Source: a virus
Lineage: Duplodnaviria; Caudoviricetes
Length of the DNA: 37,342 bases
Strand: one strand, 5' to 3'
IMG/VR virus record: IMGVR_UViG_3300006037_000017
Location: 1-37,342 of that record
A program made the position numbers and the translations under genes. Under the pieces are notes generated by a model. That model was not told the DNA's origin. It worked only from the letters and a program-made list of their open reading frames with translations, and did not search any database. Position 1 is the stretch's first letter, and every line of letters starts with the position of its first letter. Positions 473 to 15,567 of this stretch are shown here, piece after piece.

Positions 473-1324
473 TCACGTTTTCAGGGCATCCCTGACACCC
501 AGAGGCCAGTTGGAAATCAGCAGTTCGGGTCGGTTGGTGGCCTCGCCGGAACGGGTGGCGATGCCGTAGGTCGTGGTCACGGCCTCGAGGTGGAAAGCGG
601 CGAATACATCGCGGATTTCGGGCACATCGTTGATCGAGAGGATAAACCGGCCTTGGATATGGCCGAGCTGATCCGCCATGCGCGCAAAGCTGGCACGGTC
701 GAACATCGCCTTGCCGTAGTCGGTTTCGCAGCCCCAATAGGGCGGGTCGCAATAGAAGAGTGTGCCCGGCCCATCGTACCTACGGATGAAGTCTGACCAG
801 TCCAGGCACTCGATCACGACTCCGGCAAGGCGGCTGTGCAGATCTTCGAGCATCGGCTCTAGTGTGGTCAGGTTAAATCGACCTGGGCGGTCCTTGGCGA
901 CGCCGAAGTTACGGCCTGAGACCTTGCCGCCGAAGGCGGTGCGCTGGAGGTAAAGGAAGCGCGCGGCACGTTCGAGATCGGTGAGGGTTTCAGGGTTGGT
1001 ATCGACGAGACGGTTGAACTCTGTCCTAGTTGTCAGCTGGAACCGCAGCACCTCCAGAAACTGCGGATAATGGCGCTGAAGGATGCGAAAGAGATTTGCA
1101 ACATCGCGACCGAAGTCGTTGATCACCTCGGCCTTAGGCCGCTGAGTTCTGCGAAGGAATATGCCGCCCATCCCTACAAAAGGTTCAGCATATGTGGTGC
1201 AAGGCGTGGCGTCGATCATAGCGCATATGCGCTTGGCTAGATTGCGTTTTCCACCGAGCCAAGGGGCGGGTGGATGAGAAGGCTGAATTGGTGTTGACGG
1301 GGCGTTCATCGTGTCCTGCATCAT
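473..1324 (-). CDS. DNA adenine methyltransferase, Dam/D12 class
   Basis: Motifs PWLGGK, EPFVGMGG (SAM binding), VIND and the catalytic DPPY. Start could be at 1324, 1321 or 1309. Confidence 0.93.
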   Translation of the reverse strand: MMQDTMNAPSTPIQPSHPPAPWLGGKRNLAKRICAMIDATPCTTYAEPFVGMGGIFLRRTQRPKAEVINDFGRDVANLFRILQRHYPQFLEVLRFQLTTRTEFNRLVDTNPETLTDLERAARFLYLQRTAFGGKVSGRNFGVAKDRPGRFNLTTLEPMLEDLHSRLAGVVIECLDWSDFIRRYDGPGTLFYCDPPYWGCETDYGKAMFDRASFARMADQLGHIQGRFILSINDVPEIRDVFAAFHLEAVTTTYGIATRSGEATNRPELLISNWPLGVRDALKT

Positions 1325-1418: not shown

Positions 1419-2033
1419 TCAGCCGTTGGTTGCCCTAATCGATGTCGGGCCACAGATATGCCAATCATGCTGATATCCATACTCGCCGACCTTCGCATAG
1501 CAGTAGTTGAGGCGATTCAACCGCACTGCAACTTCGTTCCTCTGGGTGCAGACAGCAGGATTTTGCGCCCCCTCTGTTCCCCTGCACCTCCCGTCGTAAT
1601 CCGCGTATTGTTTGAGCAGCACGCTTACTTCTGCCGATTTTGCCTCGGAAGCGTTTGCGCCAGATGCGCTTATCTTGGCCCCAGATCGTTCGCACTGTGT
1701 GATGACTGCTGCCTGAGTAGCCCAGTCATGGGCGACCTTCACGACGGAAAATCGATCGAGACCGAATATGCCAATAAATGCATTGCCACGCTCAAAAGTT
1801 GGATCCAGCGACACCATCCCACAAGCAGTGATTGTCTGCTCTTCATTGGTGGAAGCAGCAACCTGGCCCACCAGCAGCAGGTTCGGAAGCCCCGTCGCAC
1901 GACCAACGCCCTCCTGGATCATGGCAAGCTGTTCTCGCGAAAGCTGATACTGGGTAGTGGATGCCGCTGTACTCGATTCTTGAACACATCCAGACATCAA
2001 CACAGCAGCGGAAAAAGCAAACATGCGACGCAT
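1419..2033 (-). CDS. Putative lipoprotein, likely co-expressed with the repressor
   Basis: Start reassigned to ATG 2033 with SD GAGGT. Signal peptide MRRMFAFSAAVLMSG-C has a lipobox cysteine. Several paired Cys residues. Begins 13 bp after the repressor stop. Confidence 0.75.
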   Translation of the reverse strand: MRRMFAFSAAVLMSGCVQESSTAASTTQYQLSREQLAMIQEGVGRATGLPNLLLVGQVAASTNEEQTITACGMVSLDPTFERGNAFIGIFGLDRFSVVKVAHDWATQAAVITQCERSGAKISASGANASEAKSAEVSVLLKQYADYDGRCRGTEGAQNPAVCTQRNEVAVRLNRLNYCYAKVGEYGYQHDWHICGPTSIRATNG

Positions 2034-2046
2034 AAGTACCTCTGAT

Positions 2047-2811
2047 CTAAGGGGTTCGACAGAAATAGACGACTCGCCCGACAACGCGCAGCTGATCAAG
2101 CCGGTCTGACCCGATCACTTCCGGGGCATAGCTGGCATTGTCCGAGATGAGTTCGACCATACCGTCCAATCGGCGTCGGATGCGCTTGACCAGCAAGTCA
2201 TCGCCGATGCCGATCACGGTGATGTAGCCATTCATGATCTCTCGCTGGCTATGATCAACTATAAGCAATGATCCGTCAGGAATAGTTGGTGTCATGCTGT
2301 CGCCGCGCGCTTTGATCACGGTGCATTGGTCTGGTGACGCACCCCTGTCGCGCAGAAACTGGCGGTCGAAGGCGATGACCTCAATCGGATGCTCTGCCTG
2401 CAAAGCTACTCCTGGGCCAGCCGAGGCACTTACCTCATAGCGTGGTAGGCGAATGAAACCCGCGCGGTCAAGATCACTGACCAGAGGATCGGCCTTGCCG
2501 TCAGTCTTTGATGGCCCCTCGTAGGTCGCGACGATAGTTCCGTCCGTCCGGCGCACCTTGGTGCCTACTCGGCGCTCAATATCTTGAGAGTGACGCCCTG
2601 TCAGGACAAAAACAATATCGGCTCCAATATCCCCGATGCGCACTAAATAATCAGAGGTCGGCGCACTTCCTTTCTCGTAAAGCCGCTGCGATCCCTTCGA
2701 AACACCTGATTTGTCAGCAAAATCTACAAGGCTATAGCCCAGTCTTTCGCGTTCAGACCGAATCCTGTCTCCACGATCAATATCTTGATTTTTGGGCGTT
2801 GACGAAATCAA
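2047..2811 (-). CDS. Phage repressor, XRE HTH plus S24 (LexA/CI) peptidase domain
   Basis: N-terminal HTH (RIRSERERLGYSLVDFA...YEKG), Ala-Gly cleavage site (SAGPG), catalytic Ser (GDSM) and Lys (VKRI). TTG start. Divergent from ner. Confidence 0.92.
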   Translation of the reverse strand: MISSTPKNQDIDRGDRIRSERERLGYSLVDFADKSGVSKGSQRLYEKGSAPTSDYLVRIGDIGADIVFVLTGRHSQDIERRVGTKVRRTDGTIVATYEGPSKTDGKADPLVSDLDRAGFIRLPRYEVSASAGPGVALQAEHPIEVIAFDRQFLRDRGASPDQCTVIKARGDSMTPTIPDGSLLIVDHSQREIMNGYITVIGIGDDLLVKRIRRRLDGMVELISDNASYAPEVIGSDRLDQLRVVGRVVYFCRTP

Positions 2812-2819
2812 TATCTTAA
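2576..2819. promoter_or_regulatory. Three putative repressor operators, TCAATATCTT(G/A)A
   Basis: Near-palindromic TCAA-TATC-TTGA at 2576-2587 and 2777-2788; TCAATATCTTAA at 2808-2819. Confidence 0.7.
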
Positions 2820-2827
2820 CCTAACTT
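2799..2827 (+). promoter_or_regulatory. Putative early promoter (Pe)
   Basis: TTGACG-N17-TAACTT, with an operator copy in the spacer, upstream of ner. Confidence 0.65.
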
Positions 2828-2877
2828 CACTGTATGCAGCCGCCAGTTGGCCTCTGCTGTTGTCCATGTGTCACCAA

Positions 2878-2905
2878 TAAAAAGCGGGTGTTCGCGCACC
2901 CGCCT
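2878..2905 (-). terminator. Hairpin in the ner leader; intrinsic terminator form on the minus strand
   Basis: GCGGGTG-TTCGCG-CACCCGC. The minus strand continues with TTTTTATT. Confidence 0.5.
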
Positions 2906-2923
2906 TCCACTGGAGGAAATCCA

Positions 2924-3229
2924 ATGACCCAACGCCCGAGCCCGGCGCTGGACTGGCCCGGCATTGTCGCCGAGCTCCATCGCCGGGGTATGACCCTGAC
3001 CGAACTTGCGCGCCGGAACGGTCTTCACGCTGCCGTCTGTCGGCAGGTCAAAGATCGCACCAACTTCAAGGGTCAGAAGGCCATTGCCGACTTTCTCGAG
3101 ATGAAACCCGAGGCGCTCTGGCCCGACCGCTATCCCAAAGGAAAACCTCGTATTCTGGATACCAACAAATATCCGCCGGTGGCGAGTCTAAAAGCTGACG
3201 CCATCGCTGACACGAGGGCCGCAGCATGA
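2924..3229 (+). CDS. ner: Ner/Nlp-like transcriptional regulator
   Basis: IVAELHRRGMTLTELAR...AIADFLEMKPEALWPDRY is the Ner/SfsB signature. SD GGAGG precedes ATG 2924. Confidence 0.88.
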   Translation: MTQRPSPALDWPGIVAELHRRGMTLTELARRNGLHAAVCRQVKDRTNFKGQKAIADFLEMKPEALWPDRYPKGKPRILDTNKYPPVASLKADAIADTRAAA

Positions 3230-3576
3230 CCCTTCGTTTGTCAATGAATCGCTGCGGCTTTGACATGAATTCGGGCGAGTTGCGCGATGCGATTGCCGAC
3301 TTGACCCGGTCGGCCAGAGAGATCGGCGCGGCCATCGGCATGCTCAACGCGACCGTCTCGGCCCCCCCGGATGAAGTGCGCGCCACCGCGTCTGCCCTGC
3401 GTGTGCATCGCAACTGGTTGCTGGAGCAGGTTGAACTGCTGCGCGCAAAGCTGCGGCTGTGTGAGGCGCGTGCGCGCGAGTCCGTGGTTCGCCGCACCGT
3501 TGAAAGCATGACGGTTACCCTCTTGCCCACGCCCTATGCGCCTGTGAAGGCCCGCGACGAACGGGCGGTGCGCTGA
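3226..3576 (+). CDS. Hypothetical protein
   Basis: ATGA overlap with ner; stop overlaps the next start. Confidence 0.6.
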   Translation: MTLRLSMNRCGFDMNSGELRDAIADLTRSAREIGAAIGMLNATVSAPPDEVRATASALRVHRNWLLEQVELLRAKLRLCEARARESVVRRTVESMTVTLLPTPYAPVKARDERAVR

Positions 3577-3950
3577 TGGGTGGCGTTTTGCAACTGCGGG
3601 TGCCCAGCATCAAACTTGGGCATGATGACGTGATCCTTGTGCCGCGCGAAGCCAATACCGAGACCGCGCGGGCGGTGTTGGCGCGCCCCGATCAGCATAC
3701 CGAAAGCATGGTGCGCGCTGCCTGTATCTGCCTGCGGGACGGTGGCGACTGGATGGATCAGGAACGTGCACGGCACCTGCTGAAGGTTCTGGACCGAGAG
3801 GCCCGCCTGAAGGCTGCCGACGATGCTTGGTGGCTGATTCAGCGGCGCAAGTTGCTTCCGATCGGGCTGTTTGTCGCGGTTTTGGTCATCGGCATCGTCG
3901 TTTTTGATAACGCGTGGGGTCAGCATTTGGCCGCTGGGGTGGCGCGATGA
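3576..3950 (+). CDS. Hypothetical membrane protein
   Basis: TGATG coupling; C-terminal hydrophobic segment LLPIGLFVAVLVIGIVVF. Confidence 0.65.
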   Translation: MGGVLQLRVPSIKLGHDDVILVPREANTETARAVLARPDQHTESMVRAACICLRDGGDWMDQERARHLLKVLDREARLKAADDAWWLIQRRKLLPIGLFVAVLVIGIVVFDNAWGQHLAAGVAR

Positions 3951-4159
3951 GAATGACCGCACAGCAAGCCCATCTTCAAATTTTGATTTTTCAGCAGATC
4001 ACGGGCGAATTTGTCGGTGGACCGCAATGGACACACGGCGTGCCGCAAACGTGGGATGATATCGCCGCCGTCCTGACTGGATGCCTCAATATCGCTCAGT
4101 CAAACAAGGAGTTTGGTCTGAGTTTCCCTGTCGGGGACGGACTTCCAACCCAAGAATAA
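3947..4159 (+). CDS. Hypothetical protein
   Basis: ATGA overlap at 3947; start reassigned from the ORF track. Confidence 0.5.
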   Translation: MRMTAQQAHLQILIFQQITGEFVGGPQWTHGVPQTWDDIAAVLTGCLNIAQSNKEFGLSFPVGDGLPTQE

Positions 4160-4214
4160 CAGCAGCACTGCGCGGCAAACGCGCAGGCATTCCTTTGTGT
4201 TTACAGGCACTAAA

Positions 4215-5057
4215 ATGACAGAAATTCAATACGTTACCCTTGATCATATCGAGGTTCCGTCTGATCGGGCGCGTGATTTCGACCCTTCATGGGCAGAAGT
4301 CTTGGCCGCGATCATCGCGGAGCAAGGCCTTTTGCATCCGATCCGGGTTCGGGCGGATGGCGACGGCTATCGGTTGATCGCCGGTCGCGTGCGCCTTGAA
4401 GCGTATCGCCTGCTGGACAGAGCACATATTCCAGCCACGGTTTCCAATGCCCAAACTGACGACGAGGCTCGGCTGGAAGAGGTGATGGAAAACCTTGGCC
4501 GGTCGGAACTGATCGCTCTGGACCACTGCCATCACCTCTATGATCTGAAGCAGGTTTGGGAGCGCATGCACCCCGAAACCAAAAACGGCGGTGACAAAAA
4601 CGTCAAGAAGGGTCAGGAGGACACCAGATTACCAACTTGGGATTCTGGTAAAGAGGTCTTCGGATTTTCCAAGGCATTCGCGGAAAAGGTCGGCCTAAGC
4701 CGCACGGCAATCTCGCGCGCTGTCAAAATCTGGTCTGACCTGACGCCTGATAGCCGCCAGCGCCTGATGGGCACGCCTTGGGCGGTAAAACAGTCCGAAC
4801 TTGTGCTGCTTTCGGGCGAAAAGCCCAAGCGCCAAGCCGAAATCCTCGACAAGCTGTTGGCGCAAAACGCCCGCGTCTCCTCGGTGGCCGATGCGATGGG
4901 CTTGCTCAATAACGGCGTCATCTTTGATGATGTCGAGCGCAAATTCCTGACGGCCAACAAGGTTTTCGGGAAGCTGGCCGATCCAGTGCTTGATCGCCTG
5001 ATCGCCGCCAACGAGGAACGCATCGTCGCCTCCCTGCAACGTCAGGGTCGCATCTGA
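4215..5057 (+). CDS. ParB/Spo0J-like protein
   Basis: IAEQGLLHPIRVR...YRLIAGRVRLEA, ENLGRSEL, HPETKNGGD and an HTH (AEKVGLSRTAISRAV). Confidence 0.88.
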   Translation: MTEIQYVTLDHIEVPSDRARDFDPSWAEVLAAIIAEQGLLHPIRVRADGDGYRLIAGRVRLEAYRLLDRAHIPATVSNAQTDDEARLEEVMENLGRSELIALDHCHHLYDLKQVWERMHPETKNGGDKNVKKGQEDTRLPTWDSGKEVFGFSKAFAEKVGLSRTAISRAVKIWSDLTPDSRQRLMGTPWAVKQSELVLLSGEKPKRQAEILDKLLAQNARVSSVADAMGLLNNGVIFDDVERKFLTANKVFGKLADPVLDRLIAANEERIVASLQRQGRI

Positions 5058-5524
5058 TGTCACGCCGCCGCGATCCTTTGACCAAAGACCTGTTTAGCTG
5101 GCAGCCGCCTCAGGTGGCTGTGGGCTATGGGGCTGAGGTCATGGGTCGCGGTCGGTTGGACAACAAGATCGCCCGCCTGATCGCCCATTCCCTACGGCAG
5201 GCCCGTGATGAGCAGAAGCTGACGCGGTCTGACGTGGCGCGGCGCATGTCTGAATACCTCGGGCGCACCGTCAGTGAGGCGATGCTGAACAAATGGTCGT
5301 CGGAGGGTTCCGAAGACCACCGCATTTCACTCGATGCCTTCATTGCGCTGGTCGATGCGACCGGGGCGCAAGGATTGCTCGGGTTTGTGCCCGGCGAATT
5401 CGGGCTGACTGTCATCGAGAGCGAATACGCCGAAATGATCGAAGAACAATTGCTTGATGAGCACATTGAAGAAATGCAGGCCCGCCGTGGTGTGTTAGCC
5501 GCCCGCCGGAAGGTGCGGAAATGA
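5057..5524 (+). CDS. Putative DNA-binding protein preceding the transposase
   Basis: Coupled to both parB and A; HTH-like TRSDVARRMSEYLGRTVSEAMLNKW. Confidence 0.75.
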   Translation: MSRRRDPLTKDLFSWQPPQVAVGYGAEVMGRGRLDNKIARLIAHSLRQARDEQKLTRSDVARRMSEYLGRTVSEAMLNKWSSEGSEDHRISLDAFIALVDATGAQGLLGFVPGEFGLTVIESEYAEMIEEQLLDEHIEEMQARRGVLAARRKVRK

Positions 5525-7812
5525 CGCAGGTTTACTTCACAGCGCGTGAGCTGGCTGACTGTGCAGCGAAGCGTGGCATCACGGCTTTTCCACAGACCGA
5601 GCGCGGCGTGCGCATTGTCGCAGAGCGCGAGGGTTGGAACGATCTTCCACCAAACCTTTGCCGTAAGCGTGCCGGGACGGTTGGTGGCGGCGGCCGCGAA
5701 TACCACCAGTCGTTGTTGCCAGAAATGCTTGCTGCGGCTTTGACCAGCACGGATGTCAGAGTGCAACTTACCAAGGTGCATGCCAATGAGACGGCAGCGG
5801 ATGAGCGCCAGATGGCCGCTTTGCGCGCTGCTGCACTGCCAGCCGGTCCGCGTGCGGTGATGCTGGCGCGCGCTGAAATTCTGCGTTCGATTGAAGGCTA
5901 TGCTATCGCCAATGGCGAGAGCAGGGCTTGGGGCATCGCCCGGTTTTTGGATGCGCAAGAGGCATGGGCCAAGCGTCAGGAAATCGAAGCGCGCCGCGAT
6001 ACTGGTTTTTTGCTGACAGGTCGCGAAATCGACAGTCTTGGCCGCGCGCTGGTTTTGACAGGCGATGACGGTTTCCAGATCGCACCCGCCACGGTGGCGG
6101 CGGCGAATGATCGGCGGTCAAAGGCAAAAGTCTCCCGCGCCTCCATTTACGATTGGTTCAAGACGCGTGACGGTAGCGGCGTGTTGGCTTTGGCACCGAT
6201 GCCGCCAAAGACGGCTGAGCCGATCCCGGATGCGTTCTGGGAGTTCATGCGGTTCTATGCATTGCCCGGCAAGCCCTCCGTTTCCGAGGCACATAAGGAT
6301 TATCTGGAAAGTGCAAAGAAGCGCGTAGGCGTGCAGTTGATGACGTTGTCGCTGGACCAGGTCGATCGCATCCTTCGCAAGAAACTCAGCAATATCGAAC
6401 GCAGCGTCGGGCGCGAGGGCATTCTCACGCTGCGTTCGCGCATGGCTTATATCACCCGCACGACCGACGATATGTTGCCGACGTCGGTCTATACCGCTGA
6501 TGGTAAGACCTTCGACGCAGAGGTCGCGGACCCTGTCAGCCGCAAACCCATGCGGCCTGAAATTACCTCCGTCCTCGATGTCGCCACCCGCAAATGCGTC
6601 GGATATGCGGTTTCGCGAAAAGAGAACGTGATCGCGGTCACCGAGGCGCTGCGCCGCTCGTGCTCGACCTATGGCATCTGCGCGATGTTCTACACTGATC
6701 GCGGCGCGGGCTACAAAAACAAGACTTTTGATGGGCGGGATGGTTTCGACGTCTTGGGGCTGATGGCGCGTCTCTCCATCACGAAAATGCACGCATTGCC
6801 CTACAACAGCCAAGCCAAAGGCATCATCGAACGCTTCAACCACGTCTGGAACGACCTCGCCAAACGCATGCCCACCTACATGGGGGCCGATATGGACAAA
6901 GAGGCCAAACAGGCGATCCACAAAGAGACCCGTGGCGAGATCAAGCAATTTGGTGAGGCACGCCGCCTGCCCAGTTGGCAGGATTTCATCCAAGCGGTGG
7001 AAAAGACGATCGCGGATTACAACGATCGCCCGCACTCTGGTCTGCCGCGCTATGAAGATCCTGCCACGGGCAGTTTGCGGCATATGACCCCGAACGAGGC
7101 TTGGGCGATGCATGTCGCCAAGGGCTTCGAGGCGGTCACAATCCACCCCGACGATCTCGACGATCTGTTCCGCCCCTACGAGCTGCGCACGGTCAGCCGC
7201 GCGCAAGTCGAGTGGAACACCAACAAGTATTTCCATCAGGCGCTCGAGCGGTATCACACCGAGCGCGTGGTCGTCGGCTACGATCTACATCAGGCCGACA
7301 AGGTGTGGGTGCGCGAATATGATGTCGCGACCGGTCAGCCGGGTCGTTTGATCTGCGTCGCGATCTTCATGGGCAATGCCACCCGCTACATCCCACTTAC
7401 GGTCGAACAGAAGGCGCTCGAAGATCGCAACAAAGGTGCGCTCAAGCGGCTTGATCGTCACCGTCAGGACAAACTGGCCGAACTCGACACGCCCTATCTG
7501 TTGGATCACCAGCCGGTCGAGATCGCCGACTACATCGACCTTACACCCGCGCCCGCTCAGGTTTTGGCTCCCGTTTTGTTGTCGATCGACAACGCGGGCG
7601 AGGCTGCTGTGTCACCCATGCCGCCGCGCCGCCGCATGTTCCGGTCAGATGAAGAACTGGCGGCTTGGGCGCTGCAGCACCCAGCGGACCTATCCCCCAA
7701 TCAGATCCGGGTTCTCCGGGACTGCGTGAACGATTCAACGGCCCGCAAGGTGCTGGAGATGTCGGGCATCGACACGGAGGCGCTTCGAACCCTCCTCCGT
7801 GCCGCTGCATGA
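5521..7812 (+). CDS. Mu-like DDE transposase (MuA)
   Basis: Mu I-alpha-like N-terminus (FTAREL...GGGGREYH). Catalytic residues in YTADGK, YTDRGAGY and KGIIERFN. YNDRPHS motif and Mu transposase C-terminal domain. Confidence 0.95.
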   Translation: MTQVYFTARELADCAAKRGITAFPQTERGVRIVAEREGWNDLPPNLCRKRAGTVGGGGREYHQSLLPEMLAAALTSTDVRVQLTKVHANETAADERQMAALRAAALPAGPRAVMLARAEILRSIEGYAIANGESRAWGIARFLDAQEAWAKRQEIEARRDTGFLLTGREIDSLGRALVLTGDDGFQIAPATVAAANDRRSKAKVSRASIYDWFKTRDGSGVLALAPMPPKTAEPIPDAFWEFMRFYALPGKPSVSEAHKDYLESAKKRVGVQLMTLSLDQVDRILRKKLSNIERSVGREGILTLRSRMAYITRTTDDMLPTSVYTADGKTFDAEVADPVSRKPMRPEITSVLDVATRKCVGYAVSRKENVIAVTEALRRSCSTYGICAMFYTDRGAGYKNKTFDGRDGFDVLGLMARLSITKMHALPYNSQAKGIIERFNHVWNDLAKRMPTYMGADMDKEAKQAIHKETRGEIKQFGEARRLPSWQDFIQAVEKTIADYNDRPHSGLPRYEDPATGSLRHMTPNEAWAMHVAKGFEAVTIHPDDLDDLFRPYELRTVSRAQVEWNTNKYFHQALERYHTERVVVGYDLHQADKVWVREYDVATGQPGRLICVAIFMGNATRYIPLTVEQKALEDRNKGALKRLDRHRQDKLAELDTPYLLDHQPVEIADYIDLTPAPAQVLAPVLLSIDNAGEAAVSPMPPRRRMFRSDEELAAWALQHPADLSPNQIRVLRDCVNDSTARKVLEMSGIDTEALRTLLRAAA

Positions 7813-7856
7813 AGACCAGAAAAGTCAACGATTTCAGGAATGAGGAAGAGCATATC

Positions 7857-8630
7857 ATGAAACCCACTTTTGTCGAGACGGAGAACGTCAGGGAGTTTTA
7901 TGGCGCGTTGAAGCGCGTGAACGAGCGCGGCGCTGTCGAGGCCTGCCTCGTGGTTGTCGACGGGCAACCCGGCCTTGGGAAGACTACCACGATCCGCCAT
8001 TGGGTGGCGCAAACGGGCAGCCTCTACCTGCGCGCGCAAAAGGGATGGGATTACAGCTGGTTGATCCAAGAGGTGCTGACCTCAATGGGGATCGACGCCA
8101 AGACCATTCGCGGCAAACGGGACCGCTTTGCGCGGGTGCTGGAAGAACTGTCCGAACGTGCCTCGCGCGCGGTGTTCGAGAATAAGACCTTTGGTCTGGT
8201 GATCGACGAATGCGACATGATCTCAAACCGGGCCGAGATCATGGAGGCCGTTCGCGGGATTTCCGATCTGCGCTACATGCCCACGATCCTTGTTGGCATG
8301 GGCAGCCTGCGCGATAATTTGCGCCGCTTTCCCCAGATCGAAAGCCGCGCACCCAACAAGGTGAGCTTCCGCCCAGCTTCGCTCGAGGATGCACGCGCCT
8401 TGATCGATGCGCGCTGCGAAGTGCCGGTCGCGCCCGATCTGACGCAATTTGTTCACCAGCTTTCCAAGGGCTTCAACCGCGAAATCCTTGAAGCGATTGC
8501 ACATATTGAACGCTTCGGCATGCGCGCTGATCCGGGGCCGGAAGGCATCACGATGGCCGATATGGCCGGACAGGTCGTGATGAATGATCGCAACACCGGC
8601 AAGCCGATCCGTGTACCGGGGGCTGCGTGA
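7857..8630 (+). CDS. MuB-like AAA+ transposition ATPase
   Basis: Walker A GQPGLGKT, Walker B LVIDE, ILVGM, R-finger SR. SD GAGGA before 7857; alternative coupled start at 7809. Confidence 0.92.
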   Translation: MKPTFVETENVREFYGALKRVNERGAVEACLVVVDGQPGLGKTTTIRHWVAQTGSLYLRAQKGWDYSWLIQEVLTSMGIDAKTIRGKRDRFARVLEELSERASRAVFENKTFGLVIDECDMISNRAEIMEAVRGISDLRYMPTILVGMGSLRDNLRRFPQIESRAPNKVSFRPASLEDARALIDARCEVPVAPDLTQFVHQLSKGFNREILEAIAHIERFGMRADPGPEGITMADMAGQVVMNDRNTGKPIRVPGAA

Positions 8631-9223
8631 TGGTTGATCGTCATCATCCCGGTTTGGCTCCGACCGCATTGCTGAAACGGCTTTCCGGTGGCGTTTGCCT
8701 GACGACGGATCAGTTGGCCGCTGACCTGGACCTGACCAAACGTCAGGTTTCTGACGCGGCCGCCAATTTGCTGCGCCGTGACTATCTCGAACGGATGGCC
8801 GTTGGCTGCTACCAACTGACCCCTGCTGGCATCAAGGCAGCGGCAGATAGTGTCGTGATCAAGTCTGGCCCCAAAGGGCCGCGCAATCGCGTCCCCGAGT
8901 TCCGCGACACTCTGCAACAGCGCGCTTGGACGGCGATGCGCAACCAGTACGCCTTTAGCATTCCCGATATCGCGCTCCATGCCGCGAAGCCGGGTGATGA
9001 GAGGGCCGAAAGGACCATCGGGCGGTATTTGCACCTTCTGGAAGCAGTTGCCTATGTCGAAGTATCGCCCCATCGCGTGCCTGCAGCGGCACCGACGAGC
9101 AATGGCCACAAGTTCTATCGGGTGCTGCAAAACACTGGCCCGCGCGCACCCGCAAAGCTCTCTAAGGCTGTCGGTATTCACGATTTCAACTTGAAGAGGG
9201 ATGTGTTGTGCAGCCCGCTTTGA
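8627..9223 (+). CDS. Winged-HTH hypothetical protein
   Basis: LTTDQLAADLDLTKRQVSDAAANLLRRDYL...YQLTPAG; GTGA coupling. Confidence 0.7.
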   Translation: MMVDRHHPGLAPTALLKRLSGGVCLTTDQLAADLDLTKRQVSDAAANLLRRDYLERMAVGCYQLTPAGIKAAADSVVIKSGPKGPRNRVPEFRDTLQQRAWTAMRNQYAFSIPDIALHAAKPGDERAERTIGRYLHLLEAVAYVEVSPHRVPAAAPTSNGHKFYRVLQNTGPRAPAKLSKAVGIHDFNLKRDVLCSPL

Positions 9224-9582
9224 ACCTCAATTTGCCCGAGCCGGAATGGATCACCTTGCTGCGTCTTGAGCAGGCGAAGGGCAAATCCATCAGCCAGATC
9301 GCGCGCGAAACCGAAATGAAGCGCCCGTCTGTGTCGATGCTGCTGTCGGGCACCTATCCCGCGCAAAGCCTTGATCTGGCGACCAGCAAGCACGGCTCGC
9401 GCATCCTCAAGCTCTACCGCGACCAGGTGCTTTGCCCTCACCAGCACCGAGGCCTCGAGATCGCCAAATGTCGCGCGCTCGCGTCCGCACCGATGTCCAC
9501 CTCGGATCCCGATCAAATCTCGCAGTGGCGCGCATGCCGCCAGTGCGCCCTGAACCCCCACAAACCGGAGAAAGGCCAATGA
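9208..9582 (+). CDS. HTH protein with Cys-rich C-terminus
   Basis: SISQIARETEMKRPSVSMLLSGTYP; CPH...C...CRQC. Confidence 0.7.
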   Translation: MQPALNLNLPEPEWITLLRLEQAKGKSISQIARETEMKRPSVSMLLSGTYPAQSLDLATSKHGSRILKLYRDQVLCPHQHRGLEIAKCRALASAPMSTSDPDQISQWRACRQCALNPHKPEKGQ

Positions 9583-9908
9583 CCAGAGCGACTTTGGTGG
9601 ACGTCATGGACGCAATCGACTGGTCGCCCAAGGCCGTCCGCTCGATCAACTCCATGCTCGAATTTACGCTTCAGGACGAAGGCGGCGCGGCCGTCATCAT
9701 GGCAGCTGCCCTGATAGTTGCCCGCGAGTTTCCCGCAGAGCAGCGGGGCGCTGACAAAGCCATCGAGCAGATTGGCACCGAGTTTTCCGAACTGATTTCA
9801 GAGGCGAGCAGGTTGATCGCCTTGAAGAAAAAACGCCCGGCGCTGTGCGTCGTTGGCGGCACCGACACCCAAAACAAAGGAACTTCCCATGACCGCGCAA
9901 CAATCTGA
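9579..9908 (+). CDS. Hypothetical protein
   Basis: ATGA coupling; SD-like GGAGAAAGG upstream. Confidence 0.65.
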   Translation: MTRATLVDVMDAIDWSPKAVRSINSMLEFTLQDEGGAAVIMAAALIVAREFPAEQRGADKAIEQIGTEFSELISEASRLIALKKKRPALCVVGGTDTQNKGTSHDRATI

Positions 9909-10548
9909 ATTCAAACCGGCATCCATTCCTGACGGCAAGATCCTCGTGGGTGAGAAGCCCTACATGTCTGACGCCAGAGGGGCGCTTTTGCCGATCGACG
10001 TCATCAAGCCGCAGCACCTTCTGGAAGATCAGATGGTGCGCGGACAGTTTGGCTGGTTTCTCGGCCTCGTCGAGCAGGCTGACCGTTTCCGAGGGCATCT
10101 GTTCACCGATCTCGGCGAATTTGACGCTCTCCTTGCCGAGAAATACGGCGCTGAAAAGGGTGGTCCGAAGGGCAATCGCACCTACTCGACCATTGATGAC
10201 TGCTTCAAAATCAGTGTCCGCGTGCGGGATGAGATCGACTTCGGGCCGGAATTGCAGGCCGCGAAATCGCTGATCGACGAATGTCTGCGCGGTTGGAGCG
10301 AGGACGCTTCGGCACCGCTGCGCGTGATCGTGAACGGCGCTTTCAACGTCGACAAAGAGGGCATGATCAACAAAGCCGAGATTTTCAAGCTGTTGCGCCA
10401 CGACATTGAAGATCCGAGGTGGATTTCGGCGATGACAGCTCTGCGTGATGCAATCCGCATCACCGGCTCGCGGACGTCTTACGAATTCCGCATGCGCTCC
10501 GCCCCCGGTGCACCGCTGATCACCGTCAGCATCACTCCGACTCGGTGA
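9889..10548 (+). CDS. DUF3164 family protein
   Basis: YMSDARGALLP...IKPQHLLED, KGNRTYST, IDFGPELQAAKSLIDECL, AFNVDKEG. SD AAGGA. Confidence 0.85.
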   Translation: MTAQQSEFKPASIPDGKILVGEKPYMSDARGALLPIDVIKPQHLLEDQMVRGQFGWFLGLVEQADRFRGHLFTDLGEFDALLAEKYGAEKGGPKGNRTYSTIDDCFKISVRVRDEIDFGPELQAAKSLIDECLRGWSEDASAPLRVIVNGAFNVDKEGMINKAEIFKLLRHDIEDPRWISAMTALRDAIRITGSRTSYEFRMRSAPGAPLITVSITPTR

Positions 10549-10555
10549 GGCAGAG

Positions 10556-10945
10556 ATGATCCGTTACATCATTCCGCCTGTCGCCGTGCCGCGGGTCATC
10601 TCTGGCACAGCGCTGCAGACCTTCCAAGGTCCGCAGCCGCGCCACGCACAGCCCGGCGAGCGCATTGAACTGGTCGACAATGCCTCGCGCCGTCAGATCA
10701 TCCCGCCACCGCTTTGCACGGCGGTGGTGCGGTGTGAAATCCTTTGGTTTGGCAATCGTATCACCCGCATTCGCGAGGGCGGTGCGGCACTCTTCCACCT
10801 CGACAAGTTCGCGCATGCCTGCGGTTATTCGAACCTTGAAGAGTTGGAAGGCGATTTCGCGCGCCGCTTCAAGCCGACCTACATGGAAGGCTTCCTCGTC
10901 GAGTGGGTGCCGCCAAGTGCTGCTCCTGCATTGGCGGTGGCCTGA
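10556..10945 (+). CDS. Hypothetical protein, possibly ASCH/PUA-like
   Basis: SD GAGG; RHAQPGERIEL...LCTAV...DKFAHACGY resembles phage ASCH-like proteins. Confidence 0.55.
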   Translation: MIRYIIPPVAVPRVISGTALQTFQGPQPRHAQPGERIELVDNASRRQIIPPPLCTAVVRCEILWFGNRITRIREGGAALFHLDKFAHACGYSNLEELEGDFARRFKPTYMEGFLVEWVPPSAAPALAVA

Positions 10946-11196
10946 TGCTTGATCGCAGCACCCTCGAAGAGGATATCGCCGCCGCCCGGATGCAGTTTCC
11001 GCTCGGCAGTCGGGTAATCTACACGCCCGTCAAAGGCGTCGCGAAGTGCGAAGACACGGTTGTGCGCTCTGCGCCTTGGGCGCTCGGTCACGGCGAAATC
11101 GTGTTGAAGATTGAGGGTCGCGCTGGCGGCGTTTCGATCAAACACCTCGCCAAAGTCGTGCCGCCTCGTCACCCCGCAACCAGCATTGGGGAATGA
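10945..11196 (+). CDS. Hypothetical protein
   Basis: TGATG coupling; FPLGSRVIYTP...RSAPWALGHG. Confidence 0.65.
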   Translation: MLDRSTLEEDIAAARMQFPLGSRVIYTPVKGVAKCEDTVVRSAPWALGHGEIVLKIEGRAGGVSIKHLAKVVPPRHPATSIGE

Positions 11197-11822
11197 CGAT
11201 GGCCATTCCCTTCTGGACCCGCAGCGGCACGATCGACCTGTCAGCTTTGCAGCCGCAAGACATGACGGCGGAAATTCTGGCTGACACCTTGTCGAAGCAA
11301 AACCGCTTCGGTGGCCGCACAGCCTCACCGTGGCCGCTGACCTCGCATCTGTGTCTTGTGGCGGCGCTCTGCCCGATCGAGCTGAAAGCATGGGCGCTTT
11401 TGCACGACGCAGGGGCCGCGTTCCTGGGCGAGATCATGTCGCCCGCGCTGGAATTCATTTGCGAGGCTGGCACGCGCACCGCTGTTGAGAACGCCTTCAG
11501 GAACGCTCGCGTTCGGATCAACCGTGCGATCGGTGCGGGTTGGGGCGTCGTCGTGCGCTCTGAAAACCACCGCCTGCTCGATGCCGACCGTATTGCCGTT
11601 CAGGCCGAGGCATTTGTTTTGCTGGGCACGGCCCCGCAGTTCCTGACTACAGCGGACGAGGCGGATTTCGATCTCGCAGTCGCCTTCGTGAAGGTGGAGC
11701 GCGACCTCCATTGGCAAGGGTCGCGCGCCCTCTGGCTCTCCGCAGTCAAAGATCTGGCATCCCTTGGGCAGTTGACGCTGCCCAAGGCTGACGAAGCGTA
11801 CGGCATTGGGCCGGGCGTTTAA
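11193..11822 (+). CDS. HD-domain phosphohydrolase (YfbR/YfdR-like), degenerate
   Basis: LSKQNRFGG...SHL...ALLHDA...FLGEIMSP...DADRIAVQAE. Confidence 0.75.
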   Translation: MTMAIPFWTRSGTIDLSALQPQDMTAEILADTLSKQNRFGGRTASPWPLTSHLCLVAALCPIELKAWALLHDAGAAFLGEIMSPALEFICEAGTRTAVENAFRNARVRINRAIGAGWGVVVRSENHRLLDADRIAVQAEAFVLLGTAPQFLTTADEADFDLAVAFVKVERDLHWQGSRALWLSAVKDLASLGQLTLPKADEAYGIGPGV

Positions 11823-11839
11823 CCCCACTGGAGGAACCT

Positions 11840-12112
11840 ATGGGCACTGTTAACAAAGGCGAAATCATCCGCCAAGTCGCTGAAAAGACGTCGGCACCGC
11901 AAGCCCGCACAAAGGAAATGCTTGATGCATTTCTCGATGCTGTCACCAGCCACGCCGAGGCGGGCGACACCGTCAACTTGATCGGCTTTGGCCGTTTTTC
12001 GGTGAAGGCGCGGGCTGCGCGCACCGGGCGCAATCCGGGAACGGGTCTTCCGATTGAGATCGCCGAAAGTCGGACGCTGACCTTCAAGGCGTCGAAAAAC
12101 AAAACGACCTGA
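11840..12112 (+). CDS. HU family DNA-binding protein
   Basis: NKGEII, LIGFGRF, RTGRNPGTG, FKASK. SD GGAGG. Confidence 0.95.
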   Translation: MGTVNKGEIIRQVAEKTSAPQARTKEMLDAFLDAVTSHAEAGDTVNLIGFGRFSVKARAARTGRNPGTGLPIEIAESRTLTFKASKNKTT

Positions 12113-12120
12113 CGGACCTT

Positions 12121-12188
12121 TGCGAAACCCCGCCCGGATCAAACCGGGCGGCGGTCGGCACGGCGTGGTGGCCCTGTCCTGATGAGCA
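12121..12188 (+). ncRNA. Type II hammerhead ribozyme
   Basis: TGC-GAAA-[stem III, loop ATCAAA]-GTC^-[stem I GGCACGGC/GCCCTGTC, loop GTGGTG]-CTGATGA-GCA. All core nucleotides are present and the element is intergenic. Confidence 0.88.
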
Positions 12189-12202
12189 GCCCGGAGGTAG
12201 AG

Positions 12203-12781
12203 ATGAGCTATATGTTGCGTGACCGCCCCGATGGGCAATTTGAGATCGTGCTGTCTCGGCCGATCCTTGTCGGCATTTTCCCCGAGAAGGATGTGGCATC
12301 GCGGGTGATGTTCTTCCTTCAGGAAGAAGAGATCGTTCTGCCCGAGCAAGCCGTCGCGTCATTCGGTCAGACGTTGCGCGACGCAGCAGCGGCTGAGGCA
12401 GAGACGCAGGATTCGCTTCTGGATGTGGTTGAGGTGAAACGGGCCTCCCCCCCCCTGAGGCATACACCCGCCGTTGTGGCGAAGCCCAAGGTGCCTGCTG
12501 TCAGGCCAAAGACCGCGCCTCTGATGGTCGTCTCCGACCGCCTGACCAGTGTCCAACTCGAAGAGGCTTTCGCGCGTATCGTGAACGGCGAAAAGCTCAA
12601 TGTGATCGCTCCGACCTTCGATCTGACCGTTGGGCAGCTGCGATCAGTCTGGGGTCAGCAATGTCGCAAGCTGCAACAGCATTTGGCGGAGGGCGGTCAG
12701 GTGCCGTGCGCGATGTGTAAAACGCCGTTTGTCCCATCTATTTCTCACCCCGACAGCTGCGCGCGGTGCAGCCGTGACTGA
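12203..12781 (+). CDS. Hypothetical protein with C-terminal CxxC...CxxC
   Basis: SD GGAGGT at 12193-12198, ATG 12203; CAMC...CARC. Confidence 0.75.
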   Translation: MSYMLRDRPDGQFEIVLSRPILVGIFPEKDVASRVMFFLQEEEIVLPEQAVASFGQTLRDAAAAEAETQDSLLDVVEVKRASPPLRHTPAVVAKPKVPAVRPKTAPLMVVSDRLTSVQLEEAFARIVNGEKLNVIAPTFDLTVGQLRSVWGQQCRKLQQHLAEGGQVPCAMCKTPFVPSISHPDSCARCSRD

Positions 12782-13013
12782 TCATCGCCCCTCGCTCGAA
12801 GAATTGAAGCCCAAAACGATTGACGGGCTCAAAGGATTGGCCAAGCGCATCAAAAAGCGTGATGGGATCTCTCACTCTCAGGCGCTGGAGGCAGCAGCGC
12901 AACAGGCCGGGTTTCTGGCCTATCAGGCAGCGCGAAATGCGCTCGTCGAGCCGCAGGATCATACGGAAGAGGTCTTGCCGGGGTCGGCTTTCGAAAGGCT
13001 GTTGCGGCAATGA
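12774..13013 (+). CDS. Small hypothetical helical protein
   Basis: GTG start overlapping the previous gene; TIDGLKGLAKRIKKRDGISHSQALEAAAQQAGF. Confidence 0.65.
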   Translation: MTDHRPSLEELKPKTIDGLKGLAKRIKKRDGISHSQALEAAAQQAGFLAYQAARNALVEPQDHTEEVLPGSAFERLLRQ

Positions 13014-13438
13014 ACACCACAGCGATCATCAACATCGCCAAAGGCCAGTTGAACATGGTCGAGGATGACTATCGCGCCATGCTGGCCCGCGTGACGGGTT
13101 TGGCCAGCTTGCGCGCCATGACCGAGAGTCAGAAAATCACCGTTCTTGACGAAATGAAGCGCCTCGGTTTTCGGGTCAAATCGGGCGGCAAAACCCTTCC
13201 GGCCTCGGTGAAGCCCTATGTGCGGCTGATCCACGCGCTCTGGAAATCCTGCCATCGTCTCGGCGTGATCGACAATGCTTCGCGTCCAGCGCTGCGCGCC
13301 TTCTGCAAGCGTTTTGTCGCCCCCGGCGATGACTCGGTCGCCGTCGATCCCGATCTGCTCGATTCCGTACAGGCCACGCCGATCATCGAAGCGCTGAAAA
13401 AGATGGAACGGCGCGGCCGTGAAAAGAGTGCTGGCTGA
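13010..13438 (+). CDS. gemA: Mu GemA (gp16, DUF1018) family protein
   Basis: INIAKGQLNMVEDDYRAML...VLDEMKRLGF...IHALW...ALRAFCKR...IIEALKKM. Confidence 0.88.
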   Translation: MNTTAIINIAKGQLNMVEDDYRAMLARVTGLASLRAMTESQKITVLDEMKRLGFRVKSGGKTLPASVKPYVRLIHALWKSCHRLGVIDNASRPALRAFCKRFVAPGDDSVAVDPDLLDSVQATPIIEALKKMERRGREKSAG

Positions 13439-13857
13439 TGGACAAGGCAATTCCTGACGCCCAAATCCGCCGCGCTTGGCTCGATCTGTCGATGACGTCG
13501 GCCGAGGCCGCGCGGTCGGTGGGATTGTCTCGGACGGGCCTTTGGGCGCGCGCCAAAAAGCTGACCTTGCCTGCTCGGCCGGAAGGTCGGCGCGAGGTGA
13601 TCCCGCGTGAAATCCTTGCCCCGCTTTGGGCTGCAAACGTGTGTGTTGCTGATATTGCAGCACTTTATCATTGCCCTGATGTGAGTGTCAGCCAAAGTGC
13701 GCGCCGCTATGGTTTGCCGAAACGGCCCAAGGGCAAGCGCCACCTTATTTCGCTGGACGATTACCGCCAGCAGCTCCTGGGCCAGATCATGGCCCGTGAC
13801 GCCGCCGAGGAAGCTCTTGCGCGTATCCCATTTAGAATGGGGATTGCGGCAGAATGA
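13438..13857 (+). CDS. Hypothetical protein with two HTH-like repeats
   Basis: TGATG coupling; repeated ...AKKLTLPAR / ...ARRYGLPKR units. Confidence 0.65.
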   Translation: MDKAIPDAQIRRAWLDLSMTSAEAARSVGLSRTGLWARAKKLTLPARPEGRREVIPREILAPLWAANVCVADIAALYHCPDVSVSQSARRYGLPKRPKGKRHLISLDDYRQQLLGQIMARDAAEEALARIPFRMGIAAE

Positions 13858-14234
13858 ACCCGGATTTCGACGGCCTTCCAGAATCGCTCGTGGACCTTGC
13901 GGAGGCGCTTGGACTGCGCGTCGCATTGGTATTCATGCGCGAATTCGGTGGCCGCGAGATCCGTATCCCCAAAAATCCCGGCGCAGATCATCCCATCATG
14001 AAAGCGCTCGGCGAGGAAGATGGCCGGGCTCTGTGCCATTACATGGTTGATCAGACAGTTTATGTGCCCCATTGCAGAGCTGCTGGACGTCGTCGTGTGG
14101 CTCTGGATATGATCGCGAAGGGCGAAACCCGTGGCGCTATTGCCCGCACGCTGCAGCTTTCAGAGCGCCATGTGCGCCGCATAGCGAACAACACCCCCGA
14201 TAACACCCCCGACCTTTTCTCCGATTTGGACTAA
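13854..14234 (+). CDS. Mor/C-like late transcription activator
   Basis: LPESLVDLAEALG...FGGREIRIPK...IARTLQLSERHVRRI; last gene before the lysis cassette. Confidence 0.85.
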   Translation: MNPDFDGLPESLVDLAEALGLRVALVFMREFGGREIRIPKNPGADHPIMKALGEEDGRALCHYMVDQTVYVPHCRAAGRRRVALDMIAKGETRGAIARTLQLSERHVRRIANNTPDNTPDLFSDLD

Positions 14235-14279
14235 CCGGACACATGTCCGAACCGAAACGCCTCGGGCGCGCGCGATATT
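14234..14279 (+). promoter_or_regulatory. Late promoter 1 (Plys-like), activator-binding palindrome
   Basis: ACCGGACA-CA-TGTCCGAACCGA (14234-14255), 20/22 identical to 21741-21762. Confidence 0.8.
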
Positions 14280-14303
14280 GCGGGCGATCCTCGGGAGCGC
14301 TCC

Positions 14304-14945
14304 ATGTCCAAAGCCGCCATTTCACTGATCCAATCCGGTCTGCGTGACCTCGGATATAATCCGGGGCCGATTGACGGTGTTTTCGGCCGCAAGACCGACG
14401 CCGCCGCCGATCTTTGGTTGATGAACGGCGGTGCCGCCACATCGACCTTGCTGAAGCCCGAAACAGCTCAGATCATGCTGCAAGGCGCTCGGCAGTATTC
14501 GATCGACGAAGTGATCGTGCATTGCAGCGCGACGCGCCCAGATTGGATGGTCAGTGCCCCGTTCTCAGAGCAAGTGGCCGAGATTAAGCGCTGGCATACT
14601 GACCCCGTGGCGAAGGGCGGCCGGGGTTGGCGCAACATTGGTTATCACTGGCTGATAAGCCGCTCAGGTCTGATTTTGGCAGGGCGCAAGGAAACCGAGA
14701 TCGGCGCGCATGTTGAAGGCCACAACAATGGCACGATTGGCATCTGCCTTATCGGTGGCGCGGGCTCGTCAGAGACTGACCGCTTCGACCAGCATTTCAC
14801 CGCCGCGCAAGATACCACCCTCCGTCAGCTTCTGCAGGGCATCGGCATGCGCACCGCGATCAAGAAGATCAGCGGCCATAACCAATATGCTGCGAAGGCT
14901 TGTCCCGGCTTCAATGTTCCCAACTGGCTCAAGGAGGCCGCATGA
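14304..14945 (+). CDS. Endolysin: peptidoglycan-binding domain plus T7-lysozyme-like amidase
   Basis: LGYNPGPIDGVFGRKT; IVHCSAT, GWRNIGYH, GAHVEGHN, GHNQY, KACPGF. Confidence 0.93.
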   Translation: MSKAAISLIQSGLRDLGYNPGPIDGVFGRKTDAAADLWLMNGGAATSTLLKPETAQIMLQGARQYSIDEVIVHCSATRPDWMVSAPFSEQVAEIKRWHTDPVAKGGRGWRNIGYHWLISRSGLILAGRKETEIGAHVEGHNNGTIGICLIGGAGSSETDRFDQHFTAAQDTTLRQLLQGIGMRTAIKKISGHNQYAAKACPGFNVPNWLKEAA

Positions 14946-15316
14946 TGTTGCACGAATTTCTTGGGGCAGTCCTGCCCGCGCTTTTGCAGTTGGCGGGTAT
15001 CGTGCTCGCTGCGGTGATCGGGCAAGCGGCTCTGAAACTCAAATCCCGCTGGGGCATTGATATCGAAAAAGCCCATCAGGACTCGCTGCATCGCGCCCTG
15101 ATGTCAGGGATCAACTCAGCACTGATGCGCAATTTCACCGGCGCATCGGCGGCTGAGGCTGCTGTTGCGTATGCAAAGCGCAGCGTTCCCGATGCCATCA
15201 AGGCGCTTAAACCGGCCTCGGATGTCCTCCGGTCCTTGGCAGAGGCCAAGTTGCGCGAAATTTCACCACGCGATGCCGTTGCCGCGTTCCAGCCCAAAGA
15301 ACGCGCTCGCGAGTAG
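14942..15316 (+). CDS. Membrane protein, putative holin-like
   Basis: N-terminal transmembrane segment; ATGA coupling with the endolysin. Confidence 0.6.
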   Translation: MMLHEFLGAVLPALLQLAGIVLAAVIGQAALKLKSRWGIDIEKAHQDSLHRALMSGINSALMRNFTGASAAEAAVAYAKRSVPDAIKALKPASDVLRSLAEAKLREISPRDAVAAFQPKERARE

Positions 15317-15324
15317 AGGCAAAA

Positions 15325-15567
15325 TTGATTGACTTCAGCCAACATATTCAGCGGATCGACCAGGCGCACCAGCGCCTGGACAAACACGATTCCAGACTGA
15401 TCACGCTTGAGACCCACACCGCCGTCGCGACGGAGCGGGCCAAGAACATCGAGAAATCCCTAGATGATATCAAGGGAGGCCAGACCTGGCTGATCCGCCT
15501 CGTCATCGGCGCAATCTTACTGGGCGTTGTTGCCTTTATTCTGAAAGGGGGCCTCAATGTCTCGTGA
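15325..15567 (+). CDS. XhlA-like membrane protein (holin-like)
   Basis: Coiled coil followed by WLIRLVIGAILLGVVAFIL; SD GAGG and TTG start. Confidence 0.7.
   Translation: MIDFSQHIQRIDQAHQRLDKHDSRLITLETHTAVATERAKNIEKSLDDIKGGQTWLIRLVIGAILLGVVAFILKGGLNVS

Follow-up and report, generated by a model that had tools for sequence, protein, structure and literature searches.

The closest described relatives of the element reported here are the type II hammerhead ribozymes of Perreault et al. 2011 (RF02276, PMC3088659), which share with it the permutation, the core, a 2-bp stem II, a prophage setting and, as a prediction for our copy, the pairing of loop I with the 3' tail in a pseudoknot. Type II copies from a phage context cleave in vitro and in E. 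coli, and the processing of long phage transcripts was already proposed in that paper. Among genes found near bacterial hammerhead and twister ribozymes, the strongest association is with Mu-like phage genes, for a reason left unexplained (PMC10085705, citing Roth 2014 and Weinberg 2015), and what self-cleaving ribozymes do for bacteria and phages is described as unsettled (PMC6765202, PMC10085705). Desulfovibrio vulgaris has hammerheads of the same type near phage-like and DNA-binding genes; their cleavage was demonstrated in total RNA as well as in vitro (PMC8782182), whereas cleavage of our copy is predicted. A more distant parallel is the RiboJ insulator, in which self-cleavage leaves a hairpin-capped, fixed leader before the ribosome binding site, with mRNA raised about 2-fold and protein 2-10-fold (PMC6206723). 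RiboJ was engineered by joining a hairpin to an sTRSV ribozyme and is placed after a promoter, whereas the present element is natural, is internal to an operon and would cap the upstream piece as well; the likeness is one of functional analogy, not of membership.

The element lies in a viral sequence of 37,342 nucleotides (IMGVR_UViG_3300006037_000017), analysed over its full length and called the window below. The window is an RcapMu-type transposable phage, with transposases A and B, a ner-like repressor, GemA, Mor/C and a Mu-like gene order. The assignment is based on phrog_310, 296, 769 and 836, on PF06252 and PF08765, and on a gene order as in RcapMu: repressor, ner-like gene, transposase A and B, DUF3164, HU, gemA, one Mor/C, then lysis and virion genes. 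Since the phage is most closely related to Rhodobacteraceae prophages, such as one in Cypionkella aquatica (GemA 87% identical), we infer that the host probably belongs to this group. Accessory genes encode a DNA methyltransferase (473-1324, minus strand, to the left of the repressor region), a ParB-like protein ahead of the transposase (4197-5057) and a deoxyribonucleoside monophosphate phosphatase-like protein ahead of HU (11193-11822). The features around the ribozyme are the following.

9853-10548: DUF3164 gene (Pfam annotation)
11840..12112, plus strand: gene for an HU-family DNA-binding protein (PF00216, E 2.9e-26; phrog_379), whose stop ends 9 nt before stem II
12122..12191, plus strand: type II hammerhead including the pseudoknot tail (RF02276, 56.5 bits, match 12120-12195; covariation)
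12193..12198, plus strand: Shine-Dalgarno (SD) of the downstream gene (sequence)
12203..12781, plus strand: gene for a 192-aa protein, the first of the predicted 3' product (phrog_23215, E 1.8e-5; 93% identical in the Cypionkella prophage L179)
13010..13438, plus strand: gemA (PF06252, E 9.8e-25)
13854..14234, plus strand: Mor/C-family late activator (phrog_836; PF08765)

No Pfam match was obtained for the 192-aa protein. The statement that the phage has one Mor/C homologue was borne out within the window, where a tblastn search with Mor/C returned only itself. At 90 nt, the gap that the ribozyme occupies is the widest from ner to Mor; with longest-ORF starts, all other genes there are at most 37 nt apart or overlap. 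A promoter and terminator scan of 2000-15500 stayed near shuffle level (6 vs 3.7 and 13 vs 14.7, respectively) and gave nothing at the ribozyme site; the promoter scan is neutral on a single transcript across the site. Downstream, the 69-nt gap between Mor/C and the amidase gene (14235-14303), the expected place of a Mor/C-dependent late promoter, contains by eye a short GC-rich inverted repeat.

The identity of the element, predicted from the letters alone as a complete type II hammerhead between HU and the next gene, is confirmed by Rfam: Hammerhead_II (RF02276) matches 12120-12195 on the plus strand with 56.5 bits against a gathering threshold of 37 (E 3.1e-9, full model 1-66 of 66). This is the sole Rfam match, no other family exceeding its own threshold in the window, and no second hammerhead copy was found there (next-best score with our own model 15.9 bits, E 0.5). 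Direct inspection of the sequence recovered all the elements of the original prediction at their coordinates. The core nucleotides by which PMC3088659 defines hammerheads in its methods are present at 12179-85, 12124-27, U12155 and C12156, that is, C3 U4 G5 A6 N7 G8 A9, G12 A13 A14, A15.1-U16.1 and H17. The three stems abut the core with standard pairs; stems I and III are looped and stem II is open. The parts, all on the plus strand, are as follows.

12122..12123, plus strand: 5' strand of stem II, pairing with 12186-12187, 2 bp conserved (C-G in 26 of 26 and G-C in 25 of 26 homologues; outer pair G-C in 162 of 164 copies)
12124..12127, plus strand: core G12-A13-A14-A15.1, GAAA (sequence; invariant across 26 aligned homologues)
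12127..12155, plus strand: stem III hairpin, 11 pairs from A12127-U12155 to G12137-C12144, with C12152 bulged and loop 12138-12143 (covariation, fold)
12154..12156, plus strand: GUC triplet, predicted cut 12156/12157 (sequence; GUC in 159 of 164 copies, the search pattern itself demanding NUH)
12157..12178, plus strand: stem I hairpin, 8 positions, with a C.C mismatch 12161/12174 and loop 12165-12170 (covariation, per-pair counts)
12179..12185, plus strand: core C3-U4-G5-A6-U7-G8-A9, CUGAUGA (sequence; invariant bar position 7 in 26 homologues)
12189..12191, plus strand: 3' tail, the putative partner of loop I 12167-12169 in a 3-bp pseudoknot (89% of cells paired; published for the family)

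With the GUC at 12154-56 and a canonical core, cleavage is predicted after C12156, as originally proposed. Two details had to be corrected. Stem II had been drawn with three pairs, TGC/GCA, and only two are conserved (12122-23 with 12186-87). A conserved third pair was rejected, as the position just 5' of the GC varies among the 164 unique copies (A in 90, T in 50, C in 24); the U12121-A12188 pair is possible in the window copy, and the tail base is almost always A across copies. Also, the RNA runs through the pseudoknot tail to 12191 and thus ends 1 nt before the SD at 12193-98, not 5 nt. The loop and tail of the window copy match the consensus letters of Rfam. Its departures from the type II ribozymes of PMC3088659 are that it is single and not clustered, that it has the C.C mismatch in stem I, and that its pseudoknot has 3 bp. 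In the portion of the PMC3088659 supplement covered by our search, entries from the genus Rhodobacter or from Paracoccus and the terms 'GemA' and 'Mu-like' were all absent, and it may be that the window copy is not listed there.

The minimum free energy (MFE) of the single-stranded ribozyme region alone is not significant (z -0.64), so that the case for a ribozyme is carried by the covariance model and by covariation; stem III does fold well by itself (12113-12156, -22.5 kcal/mol, z -2.6). The C.C mismatch at 12161/12174 is rare (2 of 164 copies). The closest relatives have C-G at this position, but wobbles where the window copy has Watson-Crick pairs. Two wastewater contigs across the site agree at the mismatch position, and it is thus probably not an assembly error. 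Contigs from four sequencing runs, probably of DNA, have ends clustering at 12144-12153 and at 12191; we considered these as a trace of the cut site and rejected the idea, the ends fitting a shared repeat instead. In 12 of 165 copies, A9 is separated from stem II by an additional U (L003, L129, L134, L135, L138, L147, L149 and L171 among the carriers).

Covariation across related prophages, proposed earlier as a check, was found for stems I and III in an alignment of 26 of the 28 copies detected with Rfam, L144 (long stem III) and L161 (a near-duplicate of L141) being omitted. In this alignment, 93.6% of cells are paired, and two-sided changes occur at 15 of 25 pairs: 9 of 11 in stem III and 6 of 8 in stem I. 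None of 500 shuffles matched these paired and two-sided values, and slid controls dropped to 23-48% paired. The core is invariant in these 26 homologues apart from position 7; the pattern-selected set (at least 121 loci, of an estimated 180 or so) fixes loop I and the core by construction and was excluded from this measure of conservation. For the suggested pairing of loop I with the 3' tail, the outcome is mixed. Such a pseudoknot is published for the type II family (PMC3088659), three pairs are possible in the window copy (a fourth would be U.C), and 89% of cells pair in the 26 homologues, all in agreement with the proposal; all the changes are one-sided, however, and two-sided covariation was not seen.

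Relatives were picked by their GemA or HU protein, not by RNA. The GemA search led to 49 viral loci, L129, from the HU search, replacing L132 on the same contig; 48 were scanned with Rfam and L178 with our own model only. A ribozyme follows HU in all 24 HU-bearing viral loci, with 178-259 nt between them in two cases, and one further locus has a ribozyme with HU cut off. None was found in the other viral loci, comprising 13 that lack HU although upstream sequence is present, 5 distant and 6 truncated ones. Among 31 genomic loci, the ribozyme is present in 17 of 17 with HU and in 0 of 12 without, two being truncated. Because the viral and genomic sets overlap through shared prophages, and the HU-less loci belong largely to one rhizobial clade, the co-occurrence of HU and ribozyme does not count as independent support for their being functionally linked. 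The notion that another ribozyme class replaces the hammerhead in HU-less relatives was rejected, there being no Rfam match and no match to our own model better than E 0.06.

Named phages with the ribozyme are RcapMu, RcWaterboi, RS1, vB_PeaS-P1, D3112, JBD30, MuM16-1, Vibrio 1.028.O and a Ralstonia phage; a gene other than HU precedes the ribozyme in D3112, JBD30, MuM16-1 and the Vibrio phage. No ribozyme was detected in the early regions examined of Mu, StopSmel, vB_RhkS_P1, POA1180, vB_E274 and Komp_PAO1_1. RcapMu, D3112 and JBD30 carry the element at the equivalent junction, where their records have no annotated feature. In D3112 (L210:9439-9510) and JBD30 (L212:5612-5683), this unannotated orthologous ribozyme lies two genes upstream of gemA; the ATG comes only 4 nt past the tail, with no separate Shine-Dalgarno, so that a ribosome binding site, if any, would overlap the ribozyme core. 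The association of hammerheads with Mu-like phages is already published, and the window copy is in its usual setting. What is added here is the junction, now pinned after HU or its neighbour and 0.3-2.8 kb before gemA, in RcapMu, D3112 and JBD30 among others. Literature listings, with subscription papers outside their scope, gave no paper on a ribozyme in these three phages or on the stop-codon adjacency described below, and the word 'ribozyme' occurs nowhere in PMC4378225; these loci or the adjacency may already be in Roth 2014, Weinberg 2015 or their supplements.

Several other RNA elements were encountered. In the non-Mu actinophage Diane of Streptomyces (NC_054663.1; L006:1388-5200), small hypothetical genes near the genome end are interspersed with seven type II hammerheads, none of them annotated. 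IMGVR_UViG_3300017605_000570 (L020:521-5919, minus strand) has 16 of them in 5.4 kb, mostly 150-440 nt apart and most directly 3' of a small ORF; neither L020 nor L019 gave matches to the 16 query proteins from the early region of the window. In one relative, a C4 antisense RNA (RF01695, 61.2 bits; L142:3757-3841) lies between the ribozyme and gemA. The gam-gp11 gap of phage Mu (L211:6366-6400) holds a plain hairpin ahead of the next SD, with no hammerhead match and a non-significant fold (z -1.7).

The geometry of the junction was measured on 164 unique copies, most of them from a pattern scan; 10 had no callable upstream ORF, leaving 154. Of these 154, 92 have the upstream stop codon at most 1 nt from the ribozyme and 137 at most 10 nt, and by upstream gene family the median stop distance is at most 1 nt in 33 of 49; the spacing of the window copy is 9 nt. 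The distance from stop to first SD base at ribozyme-free junctions, a rough control with crude gene calls, a different kind of element and related copies, is at most 1 nt in 15 of 123. On the other side, the SD starts at most 5 nt from the tail in 113 of 141 copies, and the leader from cut to start has a median of 48 nt (46 in the window copy). The neighbours are varied, with 49 upstream families among the 154 copies and 52 downstream families among the copies with an SD-led gene (up to 141). In Mu-like loci with both genes visible, the ribozyme is upstream of gemA in 42 copies (284-2790 nt) and of Mor in 36 (1150-3504 nt).

The window ribozyme is real, conserved and very likely functional. 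As to its function, the reading that we favour, with a probability of roughly 55%, is by analogy that of a built-in insulator, which would cut the early mRNA constitutively after C12156 and leave a protective hairpin on both new ends. Sequence, family match, position, conservation and covariation can be read directly; that the window copy cleaves, that one transcript spans the site and that stability is affected is what we infer. Hammerhead cleavage yields a 2',3'-cyclic phosphate and a 5'-OH. It follows from this chemistry that the cut, as originally proposed, would divide the early mRNA in two, the downstream piece having a 5'-OH end. Since a type II cut puts stem III upstream and stem I downstream, both new ends would be capped and the downstream cassette given a fixed leader. 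The mRNA would be cut soon after synthesis. The upstream piece, which runs from the transposition genes to the end of HU, would have the stem III hairpin and a cyclic phosphate at its 3' end; the downstream piece, carrying the 12203 gene, gemA and Mor/C, would have the stem I hairpin with its 5'-OH at the front, within a leader of some 46 nt. Decay and translation of one half would likely no longer depend on the other, and the downstream half would probably be steadier or more abundant whichever accessory genes are swapped in.

An insulating role is consistent with the full core within the RF02276 match, the presence in every HU-bearing locus of the two overlapping, protein-chosen sets, the covariation that no shuffle equalled, the filling of the largest ner-to-Mor gap, and a geometry that stays fixed while flanking genes vary. 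Stem III is long and stable across copies (median 23 nt, -16 kcal/mol), the arrays of Diane and L020 punctuate small genes, and cleavage is documented for type II copies from phage contexts and for those of D. vulgaris, as mentioned above. Several points stand against it. Stem I of the window copy is weak, with its mismatch (-9.9 vs a family median of -15.5 kcal/mol), and when the 69-nt 3' product is folded, the MFE belongs to another structure, in which stem I is open and part of the SD is paired, so that a 5' cap hairpin is not guaranteed in this copy. Many Mu-like phages, Mu included, are without a ribozyme, and conservation points to selection, but not to which effect is selected. The suggestion that the 5'-OH end may resist RNase E agrees with the cyanobacterial enzyme, for which 5'-OH RNA is a poorer substrate than 5'-P RNA in vitro (PMC10939160), but gives a partial picture: RNase J, a 5'-3' exonuclease, is likewise present in Rhodobacter (PMC4179960), and in hosts of this clade it could attack such an end.

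The alternative that survives best, although it is rather unlikely, is translation-gated cleavage, in which a ribosome terminating on the upstream gene would cover stem II, the GAAA strand and the start of stem III, so that the cut would couple downstream output to upstream translation. The tight stop-codon spacing and its excess over the control speak for this. The control is crude, however, and compares a different kind of element among related copies; compaction, or a stop codon travelling with the cassette, would give the same pattern; and the window copy itself is spaced at 9 nt. In 50 distant cases, an unused stop triplet was found at the stop-codon offset in 7, vs 4 at control offsets. 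Extended to the Mu-like phages as a class, with hammerheads gated by ribosomes and pinned to the upstream stop, and with cleavage and gemA-Mor/C output reading out upstream translation, the idea appears unlikely.

The same 5'-OH end could also have the effect opposite to insulation, a possibility that we regard as distinctly unlikely: cleavage would uncouple the downstream genes from the translated message and expose them to RNase J or direct-entry RNase E, curbing potentially toxic accessory genes. A precedent exists in Bacillus, where glmS cleavage triggers decay. RNase J is present in Rhodobacter (PMC4179960), and the shorter 3' fragments of D. vulgaris were read by their authors as possibly less stable (PMC8782182). 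However, RNase J acts on few R. sphaeroides transcripts (PMC4179960), and a strong SD is retained right behind the ribozyme. The element is also kept in phages of Pseudomonas, Vibrio and Shewanella, hosts not known to have RNase J.

Cleavage might instead be incidental, the element serving at the DNA level as a homology anchor or selfish cassette boundary for the exchange of accessory genes. Many gene families flank it on either side, and a comparison with the Cypionkella prophage (L179:4771-5712 against window 11840-12781) gives 186/273 identical positions in HU (68%), 66/70 in the ribozyme (94%) and 529/579 in the downstream ORF (91%), which suggests, in this one example, a recombination point just 5' of the ribozyme. 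This explanation is very improbable, however: the stems vary in sequence yet stay paired and the catalytic core is invariant, so that selection bears on RNA structure and catalysis and not on DNA identity.

Equally improbable is the timer of the early-to-late switch put forward in the original prediction, in which a stabilised 3' piece would let the single Mor/C activator build up with a delay, replacing the middle operon of Mu. The position upstream of gemA and Mor, the lone Mor/C gene of the window and the lack of a ribozyme in two-activator Mu would fit. However, the ribozyme is also absent from the 13 viral and 12 genomic HU-less relatives, most of which have one Mor-like match after gemA, and from StopSmel, vB_RhkS_P1, POA1180, vB_E274 and Komp_PAO1_1, with one annotated activator each in the stretch examined (for these comparison phages, a single activator was read from the annotation or from tblastn over the roughly 5-6 kb next to gemA and not from whole genomes). 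Moreover, the Mor spacing varies over a threefold range with varying genes in between, some relatives have several copies per operon and Diane, a non-Mu phage, has an array, and the structure offers no hint of a time-dependent switch; the link to a single Mor/C gene is unsupported. Finally, a regulated ribozyme or riboswitch sequestering the SD, an idea prompted by the MFE of the window's own sequence, was rejected, the homologues giving no significant support for a conserved pairing of 5' flank and SD (-4.44 vs permuted -4.28 kcal/mol; 10% of 5000 permutations as low, n=141).

The window copy is itself ordinary, and what it leads to is independent of it. In the cultured phages JBD30, D3112 and RcapMu, a single-copy element lies at the orthologous junction, so that the role of the ribozyme is testable there by one point mutation in a real lytic cycle.
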